A stretch of DNA of 64,000 bases. Origin: an uncultured Planctomycetaceae bacterium. Lineage in GTDB: Bacteria > Planctomycetota > Planctomycetia > Pirellulales > PALSA-1355. Position 1 is the stretch's first letter; every line of letters begins with the position of its first letter. The stretch spans positions 31,098-95,097 of the forward strand of contig CAZRCI010000015.1 in assembly GCA_964598535.1 (NCBI GenBank). Reading direction: 5' to 3'. A program made the translations under genes and the position numbers. The notes under the pieces are model-generated. The model was not told the DNA's origin. It saw nothing but the letters and a program-made list of their open reading frames with translations, and did not search any database. Below are positions 1,862 through 64,000 of this stretch, piece after piece.

Positions 1862-3004
1862 ATGGCTGCCGCACTTCCAACTCCTCGATCCGCCTATATC
1901 CATGTGCCGTTCTGCCGACATCGTTGCGGCTATTGCAACTTCACGCTCGTCTCCGGGCGCGATGACCTGATTGCGGATTATCTGCGGGCGATTGACATCG
2001 AGCTGTCGTGGCTGGGCGCGCCGCGCGAAGTCGACACCTTGTTCTTTGGCGGCGGGACCCCCACGCACCTGCCTCTTCCGTCGCTGGAGAAACTCTTGCA
2101 GCTTACGCGGCGTTGGTTTCCGCTGGCGATTGGCGGCGAGATGAGTATCGAGGCGAATCCCGTGGATCTGACCGATGCAAAGCTCGCGTTGCTCGCCGAG
2201 TACGGGGTGAACCGCATCAGCCTGGGAGGGCAATCGTTTGACGCGGCAAAGCTCGCGACGCTCGAACGCGATCACGACGCGGCCTCGCTCGTAAAGGCGA
2301 TTCAAATGAGCCGGCGCTACATGCGGTCCGTTTCGCTGGACTTGATTTTCGGCGTGCCCGGCGAAACGCTGGACACCTGGCGGCGCGATCTTACCACGGC
2401 CATCGAGTTGCGACCGCAGCACGTATCGACCTATGGGCTAACCTTTGAGCGAGGCACGAACTACTGGAGCCGCATGCTTTCTGGTGAGCTGGCACGCCTC
2501 GACGAAGACTTGGAACGCGGCATGTACGCGCTGGCCATCGACATGCTTACCGCGGCAGGCTATCAGCACTATGAGGTTTCCAACTTCGCGCAACTGGGGC
2601 ACCATTGCCGACACAACGAAGCCTATTGGGCCGGCGATGGGTACTTTGCCGCGGGGCCCGGCGCGGCCCGCTACGTCGATGGCCGCCGAGAAATGAATCA
2701 TCGCAGCACGACGACGTATCTGAAGCGGGTGTTTGCCCAACAATCGCCAACCGCGGAGAGCGAGGCTTTGCCTCCGGAAGATCGTGCCCGAGAACTCCTG
2801 GTATTTGGCTTGCGACGCATCGCCGGCGTATGGCGGGAGGGGTTTGCCGAGCGATCAGGGTACAGCCTCGACGAGCTTATCGGGCCCCCGTTGGCGGCGA
2901 TGGTCGAGCACGGCTTGATGACCGACGACGGTCAGCGCGTGGCGCTGTCGCGAGCGGGGCTGTTCGTTTCCGACGCGATTTGGCCGCGGTTCTTGCGCCG
3001 CTGA
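1862..3004 (+). CDS. hemW: Radical SAM haem chaperone HemW / oxygen-independent coproporphyrinogen-III oxidase-like protein
   Basis: N-terminal HVPFCRHRCGYCNF (CX3CX2C radical-SAM cluster motif). At 380 aa with a HemN_C-like tail it fits HemW rather than HemN. Confidence 0.85.
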   Translation: MAAALPTPRSAYIHVPFCRHRCGYCNFTLVSGRDDLIADYLRAIDIELSWLGAPREVDTLFFGGGTPTHLPLPSLEKLLQLTRRWFPLAIGGEMSIEANPVDLTDAKLALLAEYGVNRISLGGQSFDAAKLATLERDHDAASLVKAIQMSRRYMRSVSLDLIFGVPGETLDTWRRDLTTAIELRPQHVSTYGLTFERGTNYWSRMLSGELARLDEDLERGMYALAIDMLTAAGYQHYEVSNFAQLGHHCRHNEAYWAGDGYFAAGPGAARYVDGRREMNHRSTTTYLKRVFAQQSPTAESEALPPEDRARELLVFGLRRIAGVWREGFAERSGYSLDELIGPPLAAMVEHGLMTDDGQRVALSRAGLFVSDAIWPRFLRR

Positions 3005-44890: not shown

Positions 44891-45997
44891 ATGGATCGGC
44901 GGTTGAACTGGCGACATCTATTTGCGTGGGCATGCCTAGCGCTGAGCGTTATTGGGCAGATGGCCTCGGTCGAAGCCGCAACGCTCGACGAATCCGTGCA
45001 AGGAGCGGCGCAGAAGATTGCGTCTTATCTTCGCTCGAAAGGCGAGAAAAGCCTCTCGATCGGGCAATTCACCGGGCCGCCTCAACTCGGAGCCACTTCG
45101 GGCCCCAGTATTGCCCAGCTTTTCAACGATCATCTGGGCAAGCATGAGATCCTTGTCGAACGCCGTTCGAACGTCGGCCTTCAGGGAGCCTTCGTGCTGG
45201 TCGATGCCCCCGACGAAGGCGTCGCGGTCCGGCTCAATTGCAGCCTGGTCGATCGCACGGGCGAAGTGCTTACCGACTTTGTCCTCAACGCCGATACGGT
45301 CGACCGCCAAGAGGACGTGGCCACGTTGCTGGGAACAACGGCGCACCTCTTTTCTGAAGACCGCCTTGACGACCGAAATCGCGATTTCAAAAAGCGAGTG
45401 TTCTCTCCGGAACTGGCTGTCGACGGCGCGCGGGCACGAGCCGATCGACAAAGCCCTTATGCCATTGAGATCGCGGTGGAACACCGGCCCGTGCCGGTCG
45501 AGATTCATGATGGCCAAGGTTTTGTACGCCTCGGGCGAGGAGACCTCTACACGGTGCGGCTGTACAACGACAGCGACCTGGAGGCCGCCGTGCGATTGTC
45601 GATCGATGGATTGAACGTCTTTACCTTTAGTGAAATTCGCGACCCGACTTCGGGCAAGCCGAAGTATGCGGTCTATATCATTCCTCCGCATAGCCATGTC
45701 GAGCTTCGAGGCTGGCACCGAACCAATGAATCGGTCGATTCGTTTTTAGTGACCGATTACGCGGGAAGCGCCGCGGCAACGATCAAACACCAGGAAAAGA
45801 TCGGCTCGATCACGGCCATCTTCTCGGCCGCCTGGCCCAAGGGCGGGCGTCCGCCCGAAGACGAAAACCTGACGGCGCGATCCGCCTCGGGCGGCAACGC
45901 CACGGGCTTCGGGCCGCCAATCAAGCAAGTGGCGCACGAGGTCGAGCGAGAAGTCGGTCGCATGCGGGCGGCGATCACGATTCGGTATGATAAATAA
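44891..45997 (+). CDS. Secreted two-domain protein of unknown function, upstream partner of the WD40-caspase gene
   Basis: Signal WRHLFAWACLALSVIGQMASVEA. There is an N-terminal alpha/beta-looking region. The C-terminal half is beta-rich (YAIEIAVEHRPVPVEIHDGQGFVRLGRGDLYTVRLYNDSDLEAAVRLSIDGLNVF...YIIPPHSHVELRGW) and reminiscent of DUF4384-type domains that accompany caspases; that link is from memory and unverified. Confidence 0.65.
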   Translation: MDRRLNWRHLFAWACLALSVIGQMASVEAATLDESVQGAAQKIASYLRSKGEKSLSIGQFTGPPQLGATSGPSIAQLFNDHLGKHEILVERRSNVGLQGAFVLVDAPDEGVAVRLNCSLVDRTGEVLTDFVLNADTVDRQEDVATLLGTTAHLFSEDRLDDRNRDFKKRVFSPELAVDGARARADRQSPYAIEIAVEHRPVPVEIHDGQGFVRLGRGDLYTVRLYNDSDLEAAVRLSIDGLNVFTFSEIRDPTSGKPKYAVYIIPPHSHVELRGWHRTNESVDSFLVTDYAGSAAATIKHQEKIGSITAIFSAAWPKGGRPPEDENLTARSASGGNATGFGPPIKQVAHEVEREVGRMRAAITIRYDK

Positions 45998-46120
45998 GAA
46001 ATAAGAATTCGACCCCGCTGCGGTTCCAGCAATTCACTGATGTCCCGCTGGTGTTCGGCCCTTCAATGTTCGACAACGTCGCGGGCAAGGGGGGACGACG
46101 GCGGAAAGGAGAGCGAAGTT

Positions 46121-52548: not shown

Positions 52549-52623
<75 letters not shown>

Positions 52624-52632
<9 letters not shown>

Positions 52633-52805
52633 CTGACCTAAGAGGACGCCCGGGATCGGCAAAAGCGCTTTCGCCTAAGTTCGGCGCTCGATCCCGCGCC
52701 AACTCATGCGCCGTCGTCCGGAGCGTGTCAACTCCGGACGGCGGCTTTTAAAAATTTCCGCCCTGATTCAAGAGGACGCCCGGGATCGGCAAAAGCGCTT
52801 TCGCC
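52624..52805 (+). repeat. Duplicated att-like direct repeat (tRNA-Leu 3' end plus 36-bp identical core)
   Basis: AAGAGGACGCCCGGGATCGGCAAAAGCGCTTTCGCC is identical at 52640-52675 and 52770-52805. Upstream of each copy lies TTTCCCGCACTGACCT (the real tRNA 3' end) versus the degenerate TTTCCGCCCTGATTC. A further 21-bp piece, CGCTTTCGCCTAAGTTCGGCG (52666-52686), recurs at 53110-53130. Confidence 0.7.
52710..52749 (+). terminator. Rho-independent terminator between the two att-like repeats
   Basis: 14-bp stem GCCGTCGTCCGGAG / CTCCGGACGGCGGC (one G-T pair), loop CGTGTCAA, then TTTTAAAAATTT. Confidence 0.6.
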
Positions 52806-52953: not shown

Positions 52954-53395
52954 CTCGACCGTGGCGCTGGCCTCGCGGTCAGCGCCAGAACTTAGGCGAG
53001 TCTCCTACACGCTCTCTACGGTTTGACACCCGTGGAAGCCTCTCGCGTCCTCCGTCGAGGACCAAGGGTCGCGTGGAACAGCTCGCCGCTTGGTGAGTTT
53101 CGTTCCGGTCGCTTTCGCCTAAGTTCGGCGGCAAGCGGCCCTGGCTCCTTAACTGGGCATCTCGTCCGAGCGCCGCCGCGCACACACGCGGCAGCGCTCC
53201 TGGGATTTGCTCCGTAGCGCGCACGCCCGTGCGCCTGCGGAGCGTCCCGAGGTGCCCGGACGGATCGGGACACTATGCACGCGCTGTCGGATCATGCGCA
53301 CGGCACGGATGGTTTTTTGTCATTCGCGCGCGGCGCGTTCTGTGGGATGCGATTGAGGAGGCCGGCGCTCGCCCCGCGCAGTCACGAGGTGATCC

Positions 53396-54310
53396 ATGAT
53401 CTGCCGACCCATCGACACGCTTTCCTCGCTGCTCACCGACTATCTTCGCAACCACCCCATCAAGCCCGACAGCGCCGAGCAACTCGAAATCACCTGCCGG
53501 CTCTTCGGACGGTGGCACCTGGAAGCATTCAAAATCCCCTTCCTGCTCGATGCGCTGAACGAGCAGCTTTTGACGGCGTTCCTCAACGACCTGCGCCAAA
53601 CGCGGCAAGCGAAAACCTGCAATCGCAAGCGGGGCGACCTGCTCGCGCTCTGGCGGCACGCCAAACGCCGTGGCCTGCTGCCAGCGCCCGACGTCGCCGA
53701 AGTGGTGCATTTCCCGGAACCGAAGCGCCGGCCCGACGCCTATCGGCTCGAAGAGCTCGCGCGGCGGCTCGACGCGATCGAACGCTATGTTCCCCGTCGG
53801 CGGCGGCAACAGAAGTGGGACCAGCGCCACGACCGAGCCTTGACGCTGGTGCTGTACGACACGGCCTATCGCCTGACGGCGTGTCTCGAGCTGCGCAAGC
53901 AAAACATTACCCCCGAGGGGGCCGTCGTGGCGCTGGCCACGACGCAAAAAACCAACAGCGACGAAGCCAAGTGGCTGGGCCCCGATACGCTGCGAGCGAT
54001 CCAGGCGATTCTGGACTCGGACGACGATCGGATTTTTCCGTGGTCCGCCAGCAAGGAAGCGTTCTGGCGGCGCTGGAAGGCGATCAACCGGCTCGCGGGA
54101 TTGCCCACGACACGTCGCGACGGACCGCAAAAGATGCGGCGGACCAGCGTGAGCTGGCTCGAATCGCGAAGACCGGGGTCCGCGCAGCATCACCTACAGC
54201 ACAGCTCACCCACCCTGGCGGTCAAGCACTACATCGATCCGACGATCGCCTACCCCTATCGAGCGCCCGACGTGCTGCCCCGAATCGCGCCGCCCAATTC
54301 CGGGGAGTGA
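53396..54310 (+). CDS. Tyrosine recombinase / phage-type integrase
   Basis: N-terminal SAM-like core-binding region. The catalytic part has YDTAYRLTACLEL (Arg), KMRRTSVSWL (H/K-x-x-R) and HSSPTLAVKHYIDP (His ... Tyr). GAGG RBS precedes the start. Confidence 0.85.
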   Translation: MICRPIDTLSSLLTDYLRNHPIKPDSAEQLEITCRLFGRWHLEAFKIPFLLDALNEQLLTAFLNDLRQTRQAKTCNRKRGDLLALWRHAKRRGLLPAPDVAEVVHFPEPKRRPDAYRLEELARRLDAIERYVPRRRRQQKWDQRHDRALTLVLYDTAYRLTACLELRKQNITPEGAVVALATTQKTNSDEAKWLGPDTLRAIQAILDSDDDRIFPWSASKEAFWRRWKAINRLAGLPTTRRDGPQKMRRTSVSWLESRRPGSAQHHLQHSSPTLAVKHYIDPTIAYPYRAPDVLPRIAPPNSGE

Positions 54311-54937: not shown

Positions 54938-55026
54938 GCCGGAGGGCGCGCCGCGAGGGAGTCGACGGCGCGCCCTCCGTTGGGTGTGCGTTGTTTTGCG
55001 TCCAGCATCAGCCAGGAGAAAAAGCA

Positions 55027-55725
55027 ATGAAAGACCTCAAGGAAATCATCGAACGTTCCGTCGACGAGATCGTCGACGAAGGATCGCTTGAGCAGGCGAT
55101 CAAGGAACGCATTCGCAAGACGCTCGCCAGCGTCTACGAGGAGGAGCTCGGCAAGTACAGCGACTTCGGCAAGTCGCTGACCGCCGCGGTGAAAAAGTCG
55201 ATCGGGCTCAACGGCGAGCTCGAGCTACCAAGCTACAACGACGCGGTGCTGGAGATCGTGCGATCGCTCGTCGCCGGCCAGACGCACGCGATCGTGCAGC
55301 AGCAGGTCGCTGGGCAACTCGAGGAGCTGCTCCAGCCGCCGCCGGCCAAGATCCTGTTCAGCGAGCTCGTGGCGCGGTACGTAGCCTACTGCCACGAAGA
55401 GGCGAAGTACGGCTGCCGCTGCGACGATCACGGCCAGGTGACCGTACACGTCGTGGATAACGAAGGCGGCTATTGCCGTATCCACCTGGACGAAGAGCCC
55501 AATAAATCGCGTAGCGAGTGCCGCCTGTCGATCGCCGTAAACAACCGAGGAGAGGTCTTCGCGATCAATGATCTCTACATGGGAAAAGCCACAGCGCTGT
55601 TCGGCTGGAACGTGCGCGGCTTCGCGAAGTCGGTGTTCGACATGCGGGTCGCGGGCACGATCCTCGAATTCGATCGCGACGTGGCGGACCTCGATCTGAC
55701 GTACCGCCTGGGCGACGACGATTAG
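55027..55725 (+). CDS. Hypothetical protein (232 aa)
   Basis: ATG 55027 gives MKDLKEIIERSVDEIVDEGSLEQAIKERIRK. This is the only protein-like part of the 449-aa ORF 54376-55725, whose N-terminal part is Arg/Ala/Pro junk overlapping the previous gene. Confidence 0.6.
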   Translation: MKDLKEIIERSVDEIVDEGSLEQAIKERIRKTLASVYEEELGKYSDFGKSLTAAVKKSIGLNGELELPSYNDAVLEIVRSLVAGQTHAIVQQQVAGQLEELLQPPPAKILFSELVARYVAYCHEEAKYGCRCDDHGQVTVHVVDNEGGYCRIHLDEEPNKSRSECRLSIAVNNRGEVFAINDLYMGKATALFGWNVRGFAKSVFDMRVAGTILEFDRDVADLDLTYRLGDDD

Positions 55726-56077: not shown

Positions 56078-56145
56078 AGTCGTGTAGCACAACGGTAGTG
56101 CGCCGGGGATATCCGGCGGTGCGGGTTCGATTCCCGTCACGACTC
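56078..56145 (+). ncRNA. tRNA-like sequence with aberrant anticodon arm (degenerate or unusual element-borne tRNA)
   Basis: Acceptor AGTCGTG/CACGACT, D arm GCAC-AACGGTA-GTGC and T arm GCGGG-TTCGATT-CCCGT are all canonical. The anticodon arm GCCGG-GGATAT-CCGGC has only a 6-nt loop, the variable region is 3 nt, and the total length is 68 nt. Confidence 0.45.
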
Positions 56146-56203: not shown

Positions 56204-57535
56204 ATGCCACAACCACAAAAACAACCTGATCCGCAGGCCCTAAAGCGGCTGCTGACTGAGTATGTCACGATCAGTGGGCGTAAGCTCGGAGCGGCCTCGC
56301 GCGAAACGCTGGAATGGTTGGTGCGCGAAGCGGGCTTTCGGCGCACGTTCGTGCGATTAAGTGGAAACGAGTTCCGGATCGATCCGAGCAGCATGACAAC
56401 CAGACTGAGGCGACTCGAGGCTGATGGTGCGCTCGTGATCTACAGGATACATGCCGGTCGGCTGGGAGGCGCAGAAGTTCGCGTGCGAGATCTGTTCGCC
56501 ATCCATGCCTATCGGCAGGCTGAGCGCGATCGCGACAAGTGGCTGCTGCAGTTCAGCGCTGACGACGACGAACCGCCAGCCACGATTACTCTCTCCGGCG
56601 TTCGAAATTCCGGCGCGTTGCGCGAAAACTCCGGCGCTTCGGCGGCAAGAGTCCGGAATTTGTTTGGCGACCAACCCCTCGACAGCGAGGAATCTCCGGA
56701 CTTTTCCAGGCAAGAGTCCGGAATTTCCTCGCGTAAATTCCGGCGCGTTGCGCGAAAACTCCGGCGCGTTGGCGGCAAGAGTCCGGAATTTCCTCGCGTA
56801 AATTCCGGCGCGTTGCGCGAAAACTCCGGCGCTTCAGCGGCAAGAGTCCGGAATTTCTCCGAGACCGGAGCGCCCCCAGAACTCGAAGCCAAGCTGCGCG
56901 AAACCCTGACTGCCAACCAGCTCGAAAGCTGGCTGCTTCCCAGTCGCTTCGTCGTCACAGAGGCCAACACACAAGTCTTTCTGTTTTCAGCTTTTGCGAT
57001 CGATCTGGTACGTAAAAACATCGGTCGCCAGATGCACGCCGCAACGCGTGACGCCGGCCTGCCGCCGCTCGAATTTTGCGTCGATGGGACGCTCCGGGCA
57101 TGGTTTGAAAACGACCAAAATTCCGGCGCTTCGGCGGCAAGAGTCCGGAATTTCCCGGTTAATGAATTAATATTTAATCAAACGCGCGCGGCGCGCCGCG
57201 GCGACTTCGGAGAACATCCGCTGCTACGGGCCGCGGAGTCGCTGTACGACGCGGTGGGCCTGGACTGGCCATTCCGCTGGTTCGCCATTCAGGCCATCAC
57301 ACTGCTCGACGCAGGCGCAATCCAGCGTGCCGACATCGAGCAGCGGATCGCGGATCCCGCGCGCCGCGCCAAGCTGCTCCCGCACGGGATCCGCGAACTG
57401 GCTGGCGAGCACTGGCGCGAGCTGCCGGCATTCCGCCGCCATCTGTCCGATCACTACGGCATTGCGTGGCAAGAGCACTTCGCCGCCAATCGCGCGCCGC
57501 GAGCCAATCACCCACGGAAGGGCAGCACTCGATGA
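56204..57535 (+). CDS. Replication-initiator-like protein containing the iteron array (lambda O-like arrangement)
   Basis: 443-aa ORF. The N-terminus looks like a winged helix (TLEWLVREAGFRRTFVRLSGNEF...LEADGALVIYRI). The middle is encoded by DNA repeats. The stop overlaps the next ATG (ATGA). The functional call is inferred from the repeat architecture, not from homology. Confidence 0.5.
   Translation: MPQPQKQPDPQALKRLLTEYVTISGRKLGAASRETLEWLVREAGFRRTFVRLSGNEFRIDPSSMTTRLRRLEADGALVIYRIHAGRLGGAEVRVRDLFAIHAYRQAERDRDKWLLQFSADDDEPPATITLSGVRNSGALRENSGASAARVRNLFGDQPLDSEESPDFSRQESGISSRKFRRVARKLRRVGGKSPEFPRVNSGALRENSGASAARVRNFSETGAPPELEAKLRETLTANQLESWLLPSRFVVTEANTQVFLFSAFAIDLVRKNIGRQMHAATRDAGLPPLEFCVDGTLRAWFENDQNSGASAARVRNFPVNELIFNQTRAARRGDFGEHPLLRAAESLYDAVGLDWPFRWFAIQAITLLDAGAIQRADIEQRIADPARRAKLLPHGIRELAGEHWRELPAFRRHLSDHYGIAWQEHFAANRAPRANHPRKGSTR
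56605..57155 (+). repeat. Iteron-like array: three full 57-bp units plus two partial units
   Basis: The unit AAATTCCGGCGCGTTGCGCGAAAACTCCGGCGCTTCGGCGGCAAGAGTCCGGAATTT occurs at 56605-56661, 56735-56791 and 56800-56856. There is a half unit at 56709-56734 and a unit with a 21-bp internal deletion at about 57117-57155. The unit ends are inverted (AAATTCCGG ... CCGGAATTT). Confidence 0.8.
57159..57182 (+). other. AT-rich tract next to the iterons (candidate DNA-unwinding element)
   Basis: TTAATGAATTAATATTTAATCAAA contains only 2 G/C in 24 nt, inside a very GC-rich gene and 4 nt after the last iteron. Confidence 0.55.
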
Positions 57536-58137
57536 GCTATTGGATTCCCACGTTCACCGGCAAGCTGATCGACGTTCGGAACCCCGATCCTGCGCTGATC
57601 GATCCGGTCGATATCGCCGTCTCGCTCGCGCGCAAGCCGCGGTGGAACGGCCACACGCAGCAGGCCCTCACCGTCGCCGAGCACTCGCTGAGCGGGAGCT
57701 ACGACTTTCCAGATCCCCGGCAGGCGTTCCAGTTCCTGCTGCACGACGCGCAGGAGGCGTACGTCGGCGACGTGTCGCGCCCGCTCAAGCTGCTGCTCGG
57801 CGACGTCTGGCGCACGATCGAGGATCGGTTCACGCAGGCCGTGGCCCTGCGGTTCGGCCTGGACGCGGCCCGTGGCTGGGAGCAGGTGAGCGTGATCGAC
57901 GACGTCCTGCTCGCCCGGGAACGCCGCGATCTGATACACCCCAGCGCCGCGCACGACGCGCGGTGGGCCTGGCATCGCGCGTCCGACGCCGTGCCGTGCG
58001 TCGCGCCGCAGAAACCCCGCCTCGTGATCCGCGCCTTCCTCGAACGGTTCGAGGAGCTCTCCGGCGAGCGCGTGGATTGGTCGCTACTGCCGCCGCCCCG
58101 TTCGCTCTGGCGGCGGTTCTTACCACCCGGGAGGTGA
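57532..58137 (+). CDS. HD-domain phosphohydrolase
   Basis: MSYWIPTFTGKLIDV...LTVAEHSL...FLLHDAQEAYVGDVSRPLK (H...HD...D pattern). The ATG overlaps the previous stop. Confidence 0.7.
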   Translation: MSYWIPTFTGKLIDVRNPDPALIDPVDIAVSLARKPRWNGHTQQALTVAEHSLSGSYDFPDPRQAFQFLLHDAQEAYVGDVSRPLKLLLGDVWRTIEDRFTQAVALRFGLDAARGWEQVSVIDDVLLARERRDLIHPSAAHDARWAWHRASDAVPCVAPQKPRLVIRAFLERFEELSGERVDWSLLPPPRSLWRRFLPPGR

Positions 58138-59955: not shown

Positions 59956-60231
59956 ATGGCGGACACGACCGAACCAGGCTTGCGTTTGCAGCAACGGCTC
60001 AACGAGCTCTGGCAGGCAATGATGAACGAGCTGCCGCCCGAATCACGCGCGAAGTGCGCTTGGACCTGGTGCGGCGCCTTGCTGAGCCAGGCCGTTCTGA
60101 TCGCCGCCTACATGCACGGCGCGGAAGCAGACCTGGAGGCGATGAGACCGGCGCTCGAGGACGTGGCCGAGGCCCTGAGCCAGCACTTTCCCACGCCGCG
60201 TGCGACGATCAAGGAGGTTCCGCATGCGTGA
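59956..60231 (+). CDS. Hypothetical helical protein (91 aa)
   Basis: AAAGGAG RBS; no motif recognised. Confidence 0.45.
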   Translation: MADTTEPGLRLQQRLNELWQAMMNELPPESRAKCAWTWCGALLSQAVLIAAYMHGAEADLEAMRPALEDVAEALSQHFPTPRATIKEVPHA

Positions 60232-60742
60232 AGAAAATTCCCAGGCCTGCCCGGTTGTGGGTTGCAATCGCTGCAAGCGCTCGGTACCGATGTGCCGCCA
60301 GCACTGGATGGCGCTGGCCGGCACGCAACGCCGGCTGCTCCTCGAGCTCGAGGAGTGCGACCCGGTGGCCTGCGGCGTGGCGGTGTTGCTGTTGGCCGAG
60401 GCCATCGGCGACGAAGCGCCCCCGTGGGCCGGCAGGAACGAGACACGACGAGTCGACCGGCGGGAGCGCGTAAAACGCATGCAAGCGGCACAACGAGCCA
60501 CGTGTCAGAGGATGCGCCGACACGCCCGCGGGCGCGACGAATATGCTCCGCGGACCGCCGCGTGGCGCGAGGAGCTGGAGCGGATCGTCCGGCTGCTGCG
60601 GGAAAAGTACTCGGCGCTGGAGGTGGCGCTGGCGATGGTGCGCGGCGGACACGGCACGGACGGCTATTGCCCGTTCCTGGTCAGCGCGGGGCTCGACCTC
60701 GACGACCAGCGCGCCGAGGCGCCGGCCCTCGCCGGCACGTAA
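60224..60742 (+). CDS. Cys-motif paralogue 1 (172 aa)
   Basis: AAGGAGG lies 6 nt upstream of ATG 60224. N-terminal CPVVGCNRCKRSVPMCRQHWMALAGTQRRLL. C-terminal YSALEVALAMVRGGHGTDGYCPFLVSAGLDLDDQRA is shared with the next gene. Confidence 0.55.
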   Translation: MREENSQACPVVGCNRCKRSVPMCRQHWMALAGTQRRLLLELEECDPVACGVAVLLLAEAIGDEAPPWAGRNETRRVDRRERVKRMQAAQRATCQRMRRHARGRDEYAPRTAAWREELERIVRLLREKYSALEVALAMVRGGHGTDGYCPFLVSAGLDLDDQRAEAPALAGT

Positions 60743-60758
60743 ACGAGGGAAACGCGGC

Positions 60759-61262
60759 ATGACGCCGATGGAATTTTGCGCGGGGCTGAGCTGCTCCAAC
60801 TGGTTGCGCGATGGGCGAACGCTGCCCTTGTGCCGGCGCTGCTGGCAGCGCCTCGCCCCCGGCCCGCGCGCGCAAATCCGTGCGCTCTCCGGGGCCGGCG
60901 AGCACCTGGCGGCACGCACCCTCGCCGCGCTCGTCGCCGAGCTGCCGGCGCGCACGCTCTGCGCGGATGCTCTCGAGCTCAATCGGACGTGGATCACCGT
61001 GCGGGCCAACGTCGCGGAGGCGCTCGAGCGAGAGGCCCGCGACTATCAGGCTGCCGTCGAACCCTGGCGCGTGCTGCTCGCAGATCTGTTCCGGTCGATC
61101 GCGGGCGCCGCGGCCTGGGGACGCTGGTCGCACGTCGAGCTCGCCTGCGCGATGGTTCGCACGCGCAGCGGGGTCGACGGATACAACCCTTACCTGCTGG
61201 CGGCCGCCGTCGACCTCGACGAGCAAACCGCGGCGAACGCTCACGCCGGGGCCGTACCATGA
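60759..61262 (+). CDS. Cys-motif paralogue 2 (167 aa)
   Basis: N-terminal CAGLSCSNWLRDGRTLPLCRRCWQRLAPGPRAQI. C-terminal WSHVELACAMVRTRSGVDGYNPYLLAAAVDLDEQTA. Confidence 0.55.
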   Translation: MTPMEFCAGLSCSNWLRDGRTLPLCRRCWQRLAPGPRAQIRALSGAGEHLAARTLAALVAELPARTLCADALELNRTWITVRANVAEALEREARDYQAAVEPWRVLLADLFRSIAGAAAWGRWSHVELACAMVRTRSGVDGYNPYLLAAAVDLDEQTAANAHAGAVP

Positions 61263-61510
61263 CGCCCGTGGCTTGCCCCCGCCCCGACAAGATCGGTTAT
61301 CCCACGCACGCCATGGCCGCGCGGGCGCTCGGCGTGCTGCGCGGCAGGAAGGGGTTTGGCGTGGCGGAAATCTATCGCTGCGACTGCGGCCTCTGGCACC
61401 TGGGGCGCAGTGGCCCGGGCGTCGGCGGCAAGTCGCGCCGCCGCAAGCGCACGCAACGGCGGCGTCTCAAACGGTCCTTGTGGTGGGGGAAAGGTGATGC
61501 CAGCCAATGA
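61259..61510 (+). CDS. Hypothetical small protein with basic tail
   Basis: ATGA overlap with the previous gene. MTPVACPRPDKIGYPTHAMAARAL...YRCDCGLWHLG then KSRRRKRTQRRRLKR. Confidence 0.45.
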   Translation: MTPVACPRPDKIGYPTHAMAARALGVLRGRKGFGVAEIYRCDCGLWHLGRSGPGVGGKSRRRKRTQRRRLKRSLWWGKGDASQ

Positions 61511-61790
61511 ATGCGCGGCCACGATGTGCGGGCGCGGAATCCACCGTGCCCGCCTGATGTGCAAGCCGCATTGGTACCAGGTGCCCAGGCACTTGCGCGC
61601 GGCGATCCGGCGGCTGTACGACGCCGAAGTGGCTCCGTTCATCGCGCGGCTCAAGAAGCTGATGGACGACGCGGCCGCCGGCTGCCCGCTCGAAACGTGC
61701 GAGATCGTGATCGCGGTGACGAGCGACCGCTCGGCGCACAATGACCGCCGGATCGCGGCGGCGCTCGACCTCTCCGAGGTCCAGCGATGA
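61497..61790 (+). CDS. Cys-motif paralogue 3 (short form, 97 aa)
   Basis: CAATMCGRGIHRARLMCKPHWYQVPRHLRAAIRRLY has the same C-x2-4-C ... C-x2-(H/C)-W ... R-x-x-(I/L) N-terminal pattern as 60224 and 60759. Confidence 0.5.
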   Translation: MPANECAATMCGRGIHRARLMCKPHWYQVPRHLRAAIRRLYDAEVAPFIARLKKLMDDAAAGCPLETCEIVIAVTSDRSAHNDRRIAAALDLSEVQR

Positions 61791-62473
61791 CCGCGCCGCC
61801 CGAGGACGTCGAGACGCTCATCCGCGGCGGGCAGGCCTGGGCCAGGGCGCTCGCGCGGCAATTGTATCGCCGCTGGACGCCCGGCGCCGTGCAGCTCGAC
61901 GACCTCGAAAGCGCGGCGCTCGACGGACTGTGGCGCGCCGCCCGGCGATACGACGGCTGCCGGCCGTTCCGAACCTACGCCCAGCACCACGTCCGCGGCG
62001 CGCTGCTCGACTGCCTGCGCGGGGCCGATCCGCTCAGCCGCCAGCAGCGCGCCGCGGCCAAGGCGGCCGAAGCCCAGTGCGCGGAGTTGGCCCATCGTCT
62101 CGCGCGGCCGCCGACCGACGAGGAACTGGCCGAGGCGGCGGGGATCTCGCCGGCCGAATTGGCCGCGTTGCGGATCGCGCGGCCCCTCAGCCTCGACGCG
62201 CCCATCGCCGAGCGCGAGGACGGCCGCGCGATCCGCCTGCTCGAGCAGCTCGCGTCGCGCCAGCCAGGCGACGACGAGCGCGAACGGTTCGAGCGTCTGA
62301 CGCGCGGGCTGCCGGCGCGCACGCGGTCGCTACTCTGGATGTACTACTACGAAGGCCAGTCGATGGGGGCCATCGCCGCGCAATTCGGGGTGACGCTGAG
62401 CCGGGGCAGTCAGATTCACCGCCAGGCGCTGGACTGGCTGCGCCGCACCGCGCCCGAGATCCGGCTTGACTGA
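61787..62473 (+). CDS. Sigma-70-family RNA polymerase sigma factor (group 3/FliA-like size)
   Basis: Region 2: DDLESAALDGLWRAARRYD...FRTYAQHHVRGALLDCLR. Region 4.2 HTH: QSMGAIAAQFGVTLSRGSQIHRQALDWLR. ATGA overlap with the upstream gene. Confidence 0.85.
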   Translation: MTAPPEDVETLIRGGQAWARALARQLYRRWTPGAVQLDDLESAALDGLWRAARRYDGCRPFRTYAQHHVRGALLDCLRGADPLSRQQRAAAKAAEAQCAELAHRLARPPTDEELAEAAGISPAELAALRIARPLSLDAPIAEREDGRAIRLLEQLASRQPGDDERERFERLTRGLPARTRSLLWMYYYEGQSMGAIAAQFGVTLSRGSQIHRQALDWLRRTAPEIRLD

Positions 62474-62533
62474 TTGGCGCGTGCGGGCTACCGGCATGGA
62501 TCGTGCCCTTTGACGCCTCGCCGGGAGTCCGCC

Positions 62534-63181
62534 GTGTCTGCTACGCATTCCCTCACGCTCTATCGCACGGCGCGGCCCACGATCCGCAACGGCGACGTGC
62601 TGCTGCTGCGCAATCCGTCGAGCCCCATCGCCGTGCTCGGCCGCGGGCTCTACAGCCACGCGTCGGTCGCCTTCTGGCACGGCGCCCTGCACTCGCAAGA
62701 ACGCGTGCTGATGCTCGCGGAGTTTCGCGAGCTCGTCGGCGGCCGCATCGTCACGCTCAGCAGCCAGGTCCGCCGCTACCCGGGCCGCCTCGACGTATTT
62801 CGGCCGAAATGCACGCCGCACCTGGCGAGCTTCGCGGCGGAAATCATGGTGCGCCAGGCGGGGCACGCCTACGGCTGGGGGTCGATCGTGGCCTGCGGCG
62901 CGCTGCACGCGCCCGGCGTGCGCTGGGCCGCCCGCCGCTGGTGGAACGCGGCCGATACGCGCCTGAGCGGCTGGAGCGACTGCAAGCACTGTTCCCAGGC
63001 CGTCACCTGGGCCTACCGCAAGGCGGCCCGCACGGCGCGGAGCAACTTCGAGCTCGCTCCCGGGCTGGCGGACTGGGCCGTCGAGCCGACGCACCTCGAG
63101 CACTCGGCCGGCCTCGAGCGCGTCGTCACGGGGCTCGCGCACGAACTGCCCGAAGACGTGCTTCCCTTTTCTTCCGTCTGA
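62534..63181 (+). CDS. Possible YiiX-like permuted papain-fold peptidase/amidase
   Basis: GTG 62534 after GGGAG. NGDVLLLRN...YSHASVAFW (His region precedes) ... CSQAVTWAYRKA (Cys region follows), which is the permuted order seen in the YiiX/YaeF family. Recalled, not searched. Confidence 0.4.
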   Translation: MSATHSLTLYRTARPTIRNGDVLLLRNPSSPIAVLGRGLYSHASVAFWHGALHSQERVLMLAEFRELVGGRIVTLSSQVRRYPGRLDVFRPKCTPHLASFAAEIMVRQAGHAYGWGSIVACGALHAPGVRWAARRWWNAADTRLSGWSDCKHCSQAVTWAYRKAARTARSNFELAPGLADWAVEPTHLEHSAGLERVVTGLAHELPEDVLPFSSV

Positions 63182-63191
63182 CGAGGCCCAC

Positions 63192-64000
63192 ATGCACCTG
63201 GTACGATCCTTCGCGCTGGCGCTGCTCGTGGTGATTCCCGCGCATGGGCAGCTCGAGCCGATTCCGCCGCGGCCCGCCAGCCACGCCACGTCGCCCGTAT
63301 GCCGCGTGATCGCGGTCGCGGGCCACCATCGCTACCTGGGCAGCGGCACGCTCGTCGGCGAGACGACCGTCGTCACGAACTGGCACGTGGTGACGCCGCA
63401 GCCGGGAGAGCCGCCGGTCACGCACGTCGAGGTGCATTTCCCGGGCGGCTTCGCCAGCCTCGCGCGGATCGAGTGCGTCGACGCCGAATGGGACCTGGCG
63501 GCGCTCACCGTCGCCCGGCCACCCGTCGCGCCCGTGGCGATCGCCCTCGAGCCGCCCGCGCCGGGCGAGGTGCTCACGCTGGTGGGCTTCGGCCCGGACG
63601 GCGTGCTCCGCCAGCAGTCTGGCGAGCTGGTGCGCTACGAAGCGCCCAGCTCCAGCCCCGGGGTCCGCGAAATCGTCACCTGCCGCGCCGTCGCGCGCAA
63701 CGGCGATTCGGGCGGGCCGATCTTCGACCCGCGCGGCTGCCTGGCCGGCGTGCAATTCGGGACGGCCGACGGGCTGACCAGCGGCGCGCATTGCGGCCGC
63801 TTGCGCCAGTTTCTTGGCCGCTGCCTCGGCTGGCGTCCCGCGCCGCCCCGCGCGCAGGCCTTGCCGCCCGCGCCGTCGCCCGAATTGCAACGGCACGACA
63901 AGCTGCTCGCCGAGCGCGACGCGCTGGAACGCCGCCTGGCCGATGCCGAGGCGTTGGCCCCGCAGCTTTCCGCCGCGCGGCAGCAGCTCGAAGCGTGCGG
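63192..64000 (+). CDS. Secreted trypsin-like (S1/chymotrypsin fold) serine protease with coiled-coil tail, 3' end beyond the window
   Basis: Absent from the ORF track because there is no stop in the window. Hand translation: MHLVRSFALALLVVIPAHG (signal), TNWHV (His), WDLAAL (Asp), NGDSGGPIF (Ser), then LAERDALERRLADAEALAPQLSAARQQLE. Confidence 0.75.
   Translation, partial: MHLVRSFALALLVVIPAHGQLEPIPPRPASHATSPVCRVIAVAGHHRYLGSGTLVGETTVVTNWHVVTPQPGEPPVTHVEVHFPGGFASLARIECVDAEWDLAALTVARPPVAPVAIALEPPAPGEVLTLVGFGPDGVLRQQSGELVRYEAPSSSPGVREIVTCRAVARNGDSGGPIFDPRGCLAGVQFGTADGLTSGAHCGRLRQFLGRCLGWRPAPPRAQALPPAPSPELQRHDKLLAERDALERRLADAEALAPQLSAARQQLEAC

Follow-up and report, generated by a model that had tools for sequence, protein, structure and literature searches.

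We describe here a candidate replication origin that lies inside the gene of its own presumed initiator, in a prophage-like element of an uncultured Planctomycetaceae bacterium. The DNA analysed, hereafter the window, is a stretch of 64,000 nucleotides (nt) from contig CAZRCI010000015.1 (assembly GCA_964598535.1, positions 31,098 to 95,097 of the forward strand), and the gene in question is an open reading frame (ORF) encoding 443 amino acids (aa) at 56204-57535 on the + strand, with a codon-position GC that is gene-like. In our view this gene probably contains the vegetative replication origin of the element, organised as an iteron origin; all the evidence for the proposal comes from sequence analysis, comparison of relatives and structure prediction. 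We also lean, with slightly better than even confidence, towards a wider proposal, in which the gene belongs to an undescribed family of phage initiators that would join a MarR-like winged helix to a helicase-recruitment module resembling domain I of DnaA, and whose iteron array would be split between two linker-coding segments that bracket the DNA encoding this module. Each lineage in such a family would have its own 33-39-base-pair (bp) palindrome, evolving in concert at both positions. In most members a covarying, ~35-bp hairpin with (AACC)n tracts at its sides would serve in addition as an unwinding or priming element; in the window a bare AT tract would have replaced it.

Repeat units and an AT-rich tract in the candidate initiator gene

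An earlier note on this DNA had described a 57-bp unit that occurs three times in full and twice partially. A repeat finder recovers the same pattern: a 57-nt family at 56605, 56735 and 56800, with 96-100% identity among its copies, and two partial copies (56670-56726 and 57097-57153), the successive spacings being 65, 65, 65 and 297 nt. The natural unit is nevertheless shorter. It is a sequence of 36 bp, AAAYTCCGG-N18-CCGGAATTT, with 9-bp inverted ends, and it is present in five copies: four in tandem at a 65-bp period and a fifth 297 bp further on (Table 1). Units 1, 3 and 4 are preceded, 21 bp upstream, by an extra half-site of the left type (56605, 56735 and 56800), and the 57-bp unit of the earlier note is thus the 36-bp core together with this half-site; one of its two "partial" copies, at 56691, is in fact a complete unit whose left arm is degenerate.

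The excess of these sequences over expectation is large. The 18-mer GGCAAGAGTCCGGAATTT, which contains the right arm, occurs exactly five times (at 56644, 56709, 56774, 56839 and 57136), against a mean of 0.04 in shuffled sequences, none of 100 of which reaches five, and the left arm AAATTCCGGCGC is found seven times with at most one mismatch, where 1.19 occurrences are expected. Neither has any further occurrence in the 64-kb window. Six bp after the fifth unit begins the tract TTAATGAATTAATATTTAATCAAA, which we presume to be a DNA-unwinding element; no other 24-mer in the window is as AT-rich and, as the earlier note had stated, only 2 of its 24 nt are G or C. Its core, TTAATGAATTAAT, is common to the related locus L001 in an alignment made by eye. 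Both the repeats and the AT tract are thus far above chance and are confined to the candidate initiator gene. Dispersed repeats of the repetitive extragenic palindromic or miniature inverted-repeat transposable type were ruled out, the copies being restricted to the gene both in the window and in related loci of up to 21 kb. Promoter and terminator signals sought inside the gene gave nothing above shuffles. Elsewhere in the window, very AT-rich tracts are found only at 1723-1755 and 45980-46013, each with at most 3 G/C in 24 nt.

Counted modulo 3 from the start of the ORF, the five units begin at offsets of 2, 1, 0, 2 and 2. Translation thus reads the same DNA in every one of the three forward frames, and the iteron sequence is open in each of them. 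The earlier note had given the ORF its correct length of 443 codons and had quoted the two peptides NSGALRENSGASAARVRNF and KFRRVARKLRRVGGKSPEF exactly; it was also right that the copies differ in frame, but it counted two frames where all three are used, and its "phase 1" label differs from ours only in naming. From this frame independence the note had concluded that selection acts on the DNA. The frame-shift argument alone is insufficient for such a conclusion; it is the comparison with related loci, to which we now turn, that shows it.

The protein family and its ten related loci

A word-indexed protein search found one homologue of the window protein (P0002, 45% identity). The closest homologue, which shares the MPQPQ start of the candidate initiator, comes from a Pirellulales metagenome-assembled genome (MAG). 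An exhaustive profile search then added 17 proteins, of which 14 are near full length (~350-440 aa). The resulting family alignment (A2) comprises 16 near-full-length sequences with a common protein layout, and the DNA was read for ten related loci. When the word-indexed search was repeated with the family profile it returned three proteins only; metagenome and viral contigs scanned with the two-sequence alignment gave no match, a genome scan gave only the contig already known, and tblastn searches of 50,697 phage and 72,556 plasmid records were without a match. The family has so far been encountered in planctomycete-type MAGs and metagenomes. No source in which its members were looked up gives them a name, and literature searches returned no description of this protein family.

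Each of the ten loci has its own 33-39-bp palindrome, and in nine of them the layout is the same: a variable number of proximal copies after the N-terminal domain and, 270-350 bp beyond them and past the middle domain, a single distal copy (Table 1). Proximal and distal copies agree with one another in any one genome, whereas between genomes the palindromes are unrelated, with the exception of L001 and L005, which have a common core and a compensated arm change (GCGAGGG/CCCTCGC in the one versus GCGGGGG/CCCCCGC in the other). The only match beyond the gene, at any of the loci, is an 11-mer in L011 that is due to chance. In every case the distal copy has a tract rich in AT or in A after it; in L008 the distal copy is shifted in frame relative to the proximal copies; and the peptide encoded by the repeats has no conservation across the family alignment. 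Because the copies match within genomes and differ between them, and because the peptide is unconserved, the sequences point to a DNA element in concerted evolution. Homologues that had kept the peptide repeats and lost the DNA repeats would have spoken, according to the earlier note, against such an origin. The reverse was found, with nine of the ten loci retaining DNA repeats at both positions while their peptides differ.

The relatives have, in addition, a second palindrome. In nine of the ten a palindrome of ~35 bp, with arms of 14-17 bp (for example TTGGTTAGAAGCTCT-tct-AGAGCTTCTAACCAA), lies after the distal unit, with (AACC)4-5 or (CAAA)n tracts on its flanks. Positions 4-12 and 15 of its arms pair in all nine of these loci and positions 13-14 in eight of the nine; compensatory changes are clear, as many as four Watson-Crick pair types being found at one position, and among ~110 pair cells there is one G-T, nearly all the others being strictly Watson-Crick. 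This family-conserved palindrome lies within coding sequence and accounts for the conserved peptide LVRSSSRASNQPTNQP.

These comparisons bear on the possibility that the repeats have no function at the DNA level, being either neutral tandem duplications in disordered linkers or messenger RNA (mRNA) hairpins that tune translation or stability. Such an explanation would account for their position in disordered, unconstrained segments of the protein, for the near identity of the window's copies, as expected after a recent duplication, and for the folding of the units as stable hairpins (z-scores of -2.7 to -5.7). We consider it decidedly unlikely, however. Neutral duplication does not lead one to expect a distal, non-tandem copy, 270-350 bp away, that has been kept matched to the proximal ones, in the window as in nine of the ten loci, in spite of the differences between lineages; the dyad symmetry is kept in all the loci; the strict Watson-Crick pairing of the family-conserved palindrome is a better fit to duplex symmetry than to RNA; and the extreme AT tract within a gene of 60-67% GC is left unexplained by either variant.

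The AlphaFold 2 (AF2) model made from the 16-sequence alignment has a mean predicted local distance difference test score (pLDDT) of 73.8 (a model from two sequences was poor, with a mean of 44.7). It contains three confident domains and, between them, two segments of low confidence (pLDDT <50), modelled as disordered linkers, the second of which is linker 2 (aa 308-330). The repeats and the AT tract are encoded at aa 116-218 and 305-327, matching these two segments: the proximal block falls in linker 1, with the fourth unit extending past it to 56856 (aa 218), and the DNA of linker 2 holds the distal unit and the AT tract.

The winged helix that the earlier note had proposed for the N-terminus is confidently modelled. 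Its Foldseek matches are MarR, AbfR, the C-terminal domain of CodY, the N-terminal domain of DnaD and RTP, at probabilities of 0.9-0.97 and with E-values, in a whole-protein query, of only 0.05-0.2. Weak Pfam matches to MarR, MarR_2, HTH_IclR or HTH_28 (E 3e-4 to 1e-2) were obtained for one or two of the 16 members and none for the window protein. The predicted fold of the middle domain is alpha-alpha-beta-beta-alpha-beta and KH-like (helices 225-234, 237-244 and 263-283; strands 248-251, 256-260 and 289-293; pLDDT >90). Compared with the PDB, the family profile matches the N-terminal domain of Escherichia coli DnaA (2e0g_A, E 1.6e-5), its Bacillus subtilis counterpart (4tps_B, E 0.0016) and 8btg_A (E 0.023); seven of the 16 members match Pfam DnaA_N (PF11638; best E 3.7e-6). 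Foldseek aligns the modelled domain with 4tps at a probability of 1.00 (TM score 0.62-0.65, root-mean-square deviation 2.5-3.2), and 2e0g and the DciA structure 8a3v_D are also among its matches. Profile and model thus concur in making the middle domain homologous to DnaA domain I and, by analogy, presumably a helicase-recruitment or oligomerisation module. For the helical C-terminal domain, whose motifs are conserved across the family, no structural match was identified.

For the protein as a whole, the best matches in BFVD are annotated as a "putative replicon initiation protein" (E 2e-6) and a "DnaA N-terminal domain containing protein" (E 5e-5), with "Replisome organizer" entries lower in the list; a PHROG scan of the window protein found no family. 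Because of the homology to DnaA domain I and these viral structural matches, we place the protein among replication-type architectures. The earlier note had named membership of a non-replicative family as a ground for refuting its interpretation; the comparisons speak against such membership. A rolling-circle Rep or an ATPase initiator was considered and rejected: the 16-sequence alignment is invariant only at Gly and Trp residues and at the starting Met, and no catalytic or nucleotide-binding motif was apparent by inspection, no motif search having been made.

The same protein architecture can be read in another way. Several phages have their packaging (pac) site inside the gene of the small terminase subunit, and that of phage P1 consists of two blocks of hexamer repeats. 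An N-terminal winged helix followed by an oligomerisation-type region and a C-terminal domain would suit a small-terminase-like DNA-recognition protein, and the split repeat blocks recall pac sites. That the repeats are the pac site of such a protein seems to us very improbable all the same, as neither the window nor any relative has a large terminase gene next to this one and Pfam and PHROG scans of the protein and its neighbours reveal no terminase family. Moreover, the gene lies in an integrase-proximal early region, its middle domain is homologous to DnaA domain I, and in structure the protein best matches viral replication proteins, not terminases.

The prophage-like element and the proposed mechanism

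The element in which the gene is found is probably temperate-phage-like, stands beside a tRNA-Leu gene of a planctomycete and extends past the end of the window. The tRNA-Leu, a tyrosine-recombinase gene and neighbours that match PHROG phage families (among them the gene at 55012-55725, which matches phrog_2600) together lead us to assign the candidate initiator ORF to the early region, close to the integrase, of a prophage-like element. Its relatives, similarly, follow integrases and precede ParB-like, methylase and SNF2 genes, surroundings that are those of an early or DNA-metabolism region. The element differs in composition from its surroundings: it has ~67% GC (60-67% in the initiator gene), and the GC fraction is 0.70-0.74 near the window end (60000-64000) versus 0.57-0.62 ahead of 52.5 kb, where the sequence is host-like. 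Directly downstream, with a start that overlaps the initiator stop codon (ATGA), is a gene for an HD-type phosphatase, which also follows the initiator in L008 and L011 (43-47% identity); it is context, outside the candidate origin.

We propose that dimers of the N-terminal MarR-like winged helix would bind the symmetric units, and that protein-protein contacts would join the proximal block to the distal unit and loop or wrap the ~270 bp between them, in the manner of the lambda O-some. The stress so produced could melt the adjoining AT-rich tract, whereupon the DnaA-domain-I-like middle domain would recruit the host replicative helicase, either directly or via DciA. DnaA domain I recruits the helicase at oriC, mediating both self-interaction and the loading of DnaB, and it is by analogy only that this knowledge supports the recruitment step proposed here. 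Transcription and translation of the gene would traverse such an origin, and the iteron sequence must for that reason stay free of stop codons.

Several observations weigh against this scheme. Among the ORFs scanned within 6.5 kb downstream, none was recognisable as a gene for a helicase, a loader or a primase. The window protein on its own reaches no Pfam threshold, that of DnaA_N included (no family at E up to 1). The window contains no site for the DnaA-box consensus TTWTNCACA, a result by which an origin driven by DnaA boxes has been ruled out. It is also without the family-conserved palindrome and without an (AACC)n or (CAAA)n tract, having kept only the AT tract; relative to L001 this loss looks like an in-frame deletion of 39 nt, and the window may accordingly hold a variant origin, or one that is weakened or crippled.

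A further difficulty concerns which domain or protein reads the repeats. The N-terminal domains of the window protein (P0001) and of P0002 are ~75% identical (alignment A1), and the repeats that they face are unrelated. In this domain the presumed recognition helix and wing, with 28% of the residues, hold about five of the ten window-specific substitutions, a weak enrichment over few sites. We can therefore only presume that the winged helix is the reader. In three relatives, furthermore, a large gene for a protein of 583-699 aa with ParB_N and HTH_ParB domains is found 0.3-1.2 kb downstream of the initiator (L007 8004-10103, L008 2706-4457, L011 12221-14071), and its product could bind the palindromes. 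The units might then be centromere-like sites, or sites of some other kind, for a different protein, such as this ParB-like one or the product of a small upstream helix-turn-helix gene, and serve in partition, copy-number control or autoregulation. Palindromes in arrays, such as these units of 33-39 bp, are indeed found in many centromere sites, and small DUF1580, HTH_17 or MarR-like genes lie upstream in several relatives. We nonetheless judge this explanation unlikely, given that no ParB-like protein was found in the ORFs scanned downstream in the window (6.5 kb) or in L001 (4.8 kb). It also leaves aside that the repeats are always within this one gene, flanking the segment that codes for the DnaA-domain-I-like module, that the tract after the distal copy is part of the anatomy of an origin, and that the protein itself has replication-type domains.

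Some further features of the region may be recorded. Two repeats lie near the tRNA-Leu gene: a direct repeat of 51 nt (52625-52675 and 52755-52805, 90% identical), the first copy of which overlaps the tRNA 3' end, and an exact repeat of 21 nt (52666-52686 and 53110-53130) upstream of the integrase gene. Both repeats precede the integrase gene; they look like att-type scars or the remnants of tandem integration. Another tRNA gene, at 56078-56145 (+), ends 58 nt upstream of the initiator ORF; it has an Rfam tRNA score of 53.3 bits, and ARAGORN assigns it a 6-nt anticodon loop with a two-base "anticodon". Towards the window end are a sigma-70-family factor with regions 2, 3 and 4 (61787-62473, + strand) and, adjoining it, a weak match to a peptidase C92 of the YaeF/YiiX type (62474-63181). 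In L007, L008 and L011 a CsrA-like gene comes after the ParB_N/HTH_ParB gene, and Acb2/Tad1-like anti-defence genes are near in L007 and L011.

Table 1. Features of the window and of the related loci. For the loci, the position is that of the family-conserved palindrome, and the last column gives the number of repeat copies (proximal + distal) and, for some, the arms of the repeat palindrome
Feature	Position	Strand	Evidence or remark
Candidate replication-initiator gene	56204..57535	+	ORF list, gene-like codon-position GC, one close homologue, profile-search relatives
MarR/PadR-like winged-helix domain, aa 1-115, presumed iteron binder	56204..56548	+	pLDDT ~90-95
Disordered linker 1, aa 116-212	56549..56839	+	pLDDT <50, no conservation in alignment; carries proximal repeat block
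DnaA-domain-I-like domain, aa 215-300	56846..57103	+	pLDDT ~91-98
Conserved helical C-terminal domain, aa 335-430	57206..57493	+	pLDDT ~77-96, motifs conserved across family
36-bp unit 1	56626..56661		AAACTCCGG-N18-CCGGAATTT; extra half-site AAATTCCGG at 56605-56613
36-bp unit 2	56691..56726		degenerate left arm AATCTCCGG; third reading frame
36-bp unit 3	56756..56791		frame-shifted copy; extra half-site 56735-56743
36-bp unit 4	56821..56856		extra half-site 56800-56808
36-bp unit 5, distal copy	57118..57153		35/36 identical to unit 1
AT-rich tract, presumed DNA-unwinding element	57159..57182		2 G/C in 24
HD-type deoxyribonucleoside 5'-monophosphate phosphatase gene	57532..58137	+	phrog_318, E 1.1e-45
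tRNA-Leu	52549-52633		
Tyrosine-recombinase gene	53396-54310		Pfam Phage_integrase
Window, repeat copies			4 + 1
L001	2597-2631		3 + 1; GAATGCGAGGGTT-N10-AACCCTCGCATTC
L004	10703-10741		distal copy only
L005			2 + 1; AAAGCGGGGGTT-N10-AACCCCCGCTTT
L007	7297-7331		2 + 1
L008	1063-1099		2 + 1
L009	~2548-2580		2 + 1; GGCAAACTCTCC-N9-GGAGAGTTTGCC
L010	~2153-2187		1 + 1; ATTCTTCGGTGCAGCCG/CGGCTGCACCGAAGAAT
L011	10825-10859		3 + 1
L012	6987-7025		2 + 1
L013	5701-5733		1 + 1

Comparison with known initiators and origins

An origin inside the gene of its initiator is a classical principle and is not new. Among phages it is found in oriL of SPP1 (in gene 38), in rep of TP901-1, in repA of N15 and in repL of P1; the initiators concerned bind repeats within their own coding sequences and belong to families not known to be related to that of the window protein. 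What would be new, if our reading holds, is an initiator family for which there is no whole-protein Pfam or PHROG model, with a DnaA-domain-I module in place of a partner of the lambda P type, and a conserved split iteron array, in the DNA of disordered linkers, that in ten lineages has a different iteron each time. The accompanying palindrome and tetranucleotide tract of the relatives are also new. Such a gene would be a natural example of DNA-level and protein-level codes in one sequence. Were the proposal true, it would offer a minimal replicon of ~1.4 kb for the Planctomycetota, in which replicative vectors are scarce, as well as a natural series for the study of how iteron and initiator specificities co-evolve under protein-coding constraint.

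The iteron plasmids, with initiators such as RepA, pi and TrfA, have in common with the window a winged-helix initiator, iterons and an AT-rich unwinding element; their iterons, in contrast, are usually direct repeats outside the gene, and the window protein has no match to Pfam Rep_3 or RPA. Planctomycete plasmids use Reps of the RPA family, PF10134 (bioRxiv 10.1101/2024.01.22.576637).

The closest parallel in layout is that of phage lambda, whose origin sits in the middle of gene O, with iterons and an AT-rich tract (PMC7466680). On reading the O gene we found four dyad-symmetric iterons of 18-20 bp, with an A-rich tract after them; their spacings are 20, 24 and 23 bp, and they are consequently read in different frames, a precedent that deprives the frame-varied iterons of the window of novelty. 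The earlier note had invoked the lambda O/ori-lambda layout, and as anatomy the comparison is sound: in both cases the origin is inside the initiator gene, in the DNA of an inter-domain linker, and several dyad-symmetric iterons in differing frames are followed by an AT-rich tract. It does not extend to protein homology, which was ruled out (hhalign of the family profile gave a probability of 0.09%, and there was no match to Pfam Phage_rep_O or in PHROG). Furthermore, the window units are 36 bp long versus 18-20 bp in lambda, the array is split 4 + 1 around ~260 bp that encode a folded domain, a DnaA-domain-I module is part of the protein, and the next gene is an HD phosphatase and not a lambda-P-like loader. 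As the proteins are not detectably related, the window gene is best regarded as lambda-like in layout and not as a member of the lambda O family. In the lambda segment that we used (L014, 38500-40400) every coding sequence, O and P included, is labelled "cII (antitermination;119)", which looks like an annotation-parsing artefact.

With DnaA itself the middle domain shares the fold of domain I, together with profile-level homology (PDB 2e0g and 4tps), and a likeness extends to the KH-like domain of DciA (8a3v). The window protein differs from DnaA in having neither an AAA+ ATPase domain nor domain IV, and its DNA lacks DnaA boxes; recognition of the DNA would presumably be the task of the MarR-like winged helix. 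The nearest structural counterparts are phage proteins that combine a helix-turn-helix with DnaA_N, as in the putative replicon initiation protein of Brevibacillus phage SecTim467 (A0A0K2CNV5) and a protein of an uncultured Caudovirales (A0A6J5SN45), annotations that are themselves predictions. These are the best structural matches of the window protein, over ~300 aligned columns (Foldseek E 2e-6 and 5e-5, probability 1.00), and their domain order is apparently the same as that of the window protein, whereas the sequence identity is 13-15%.

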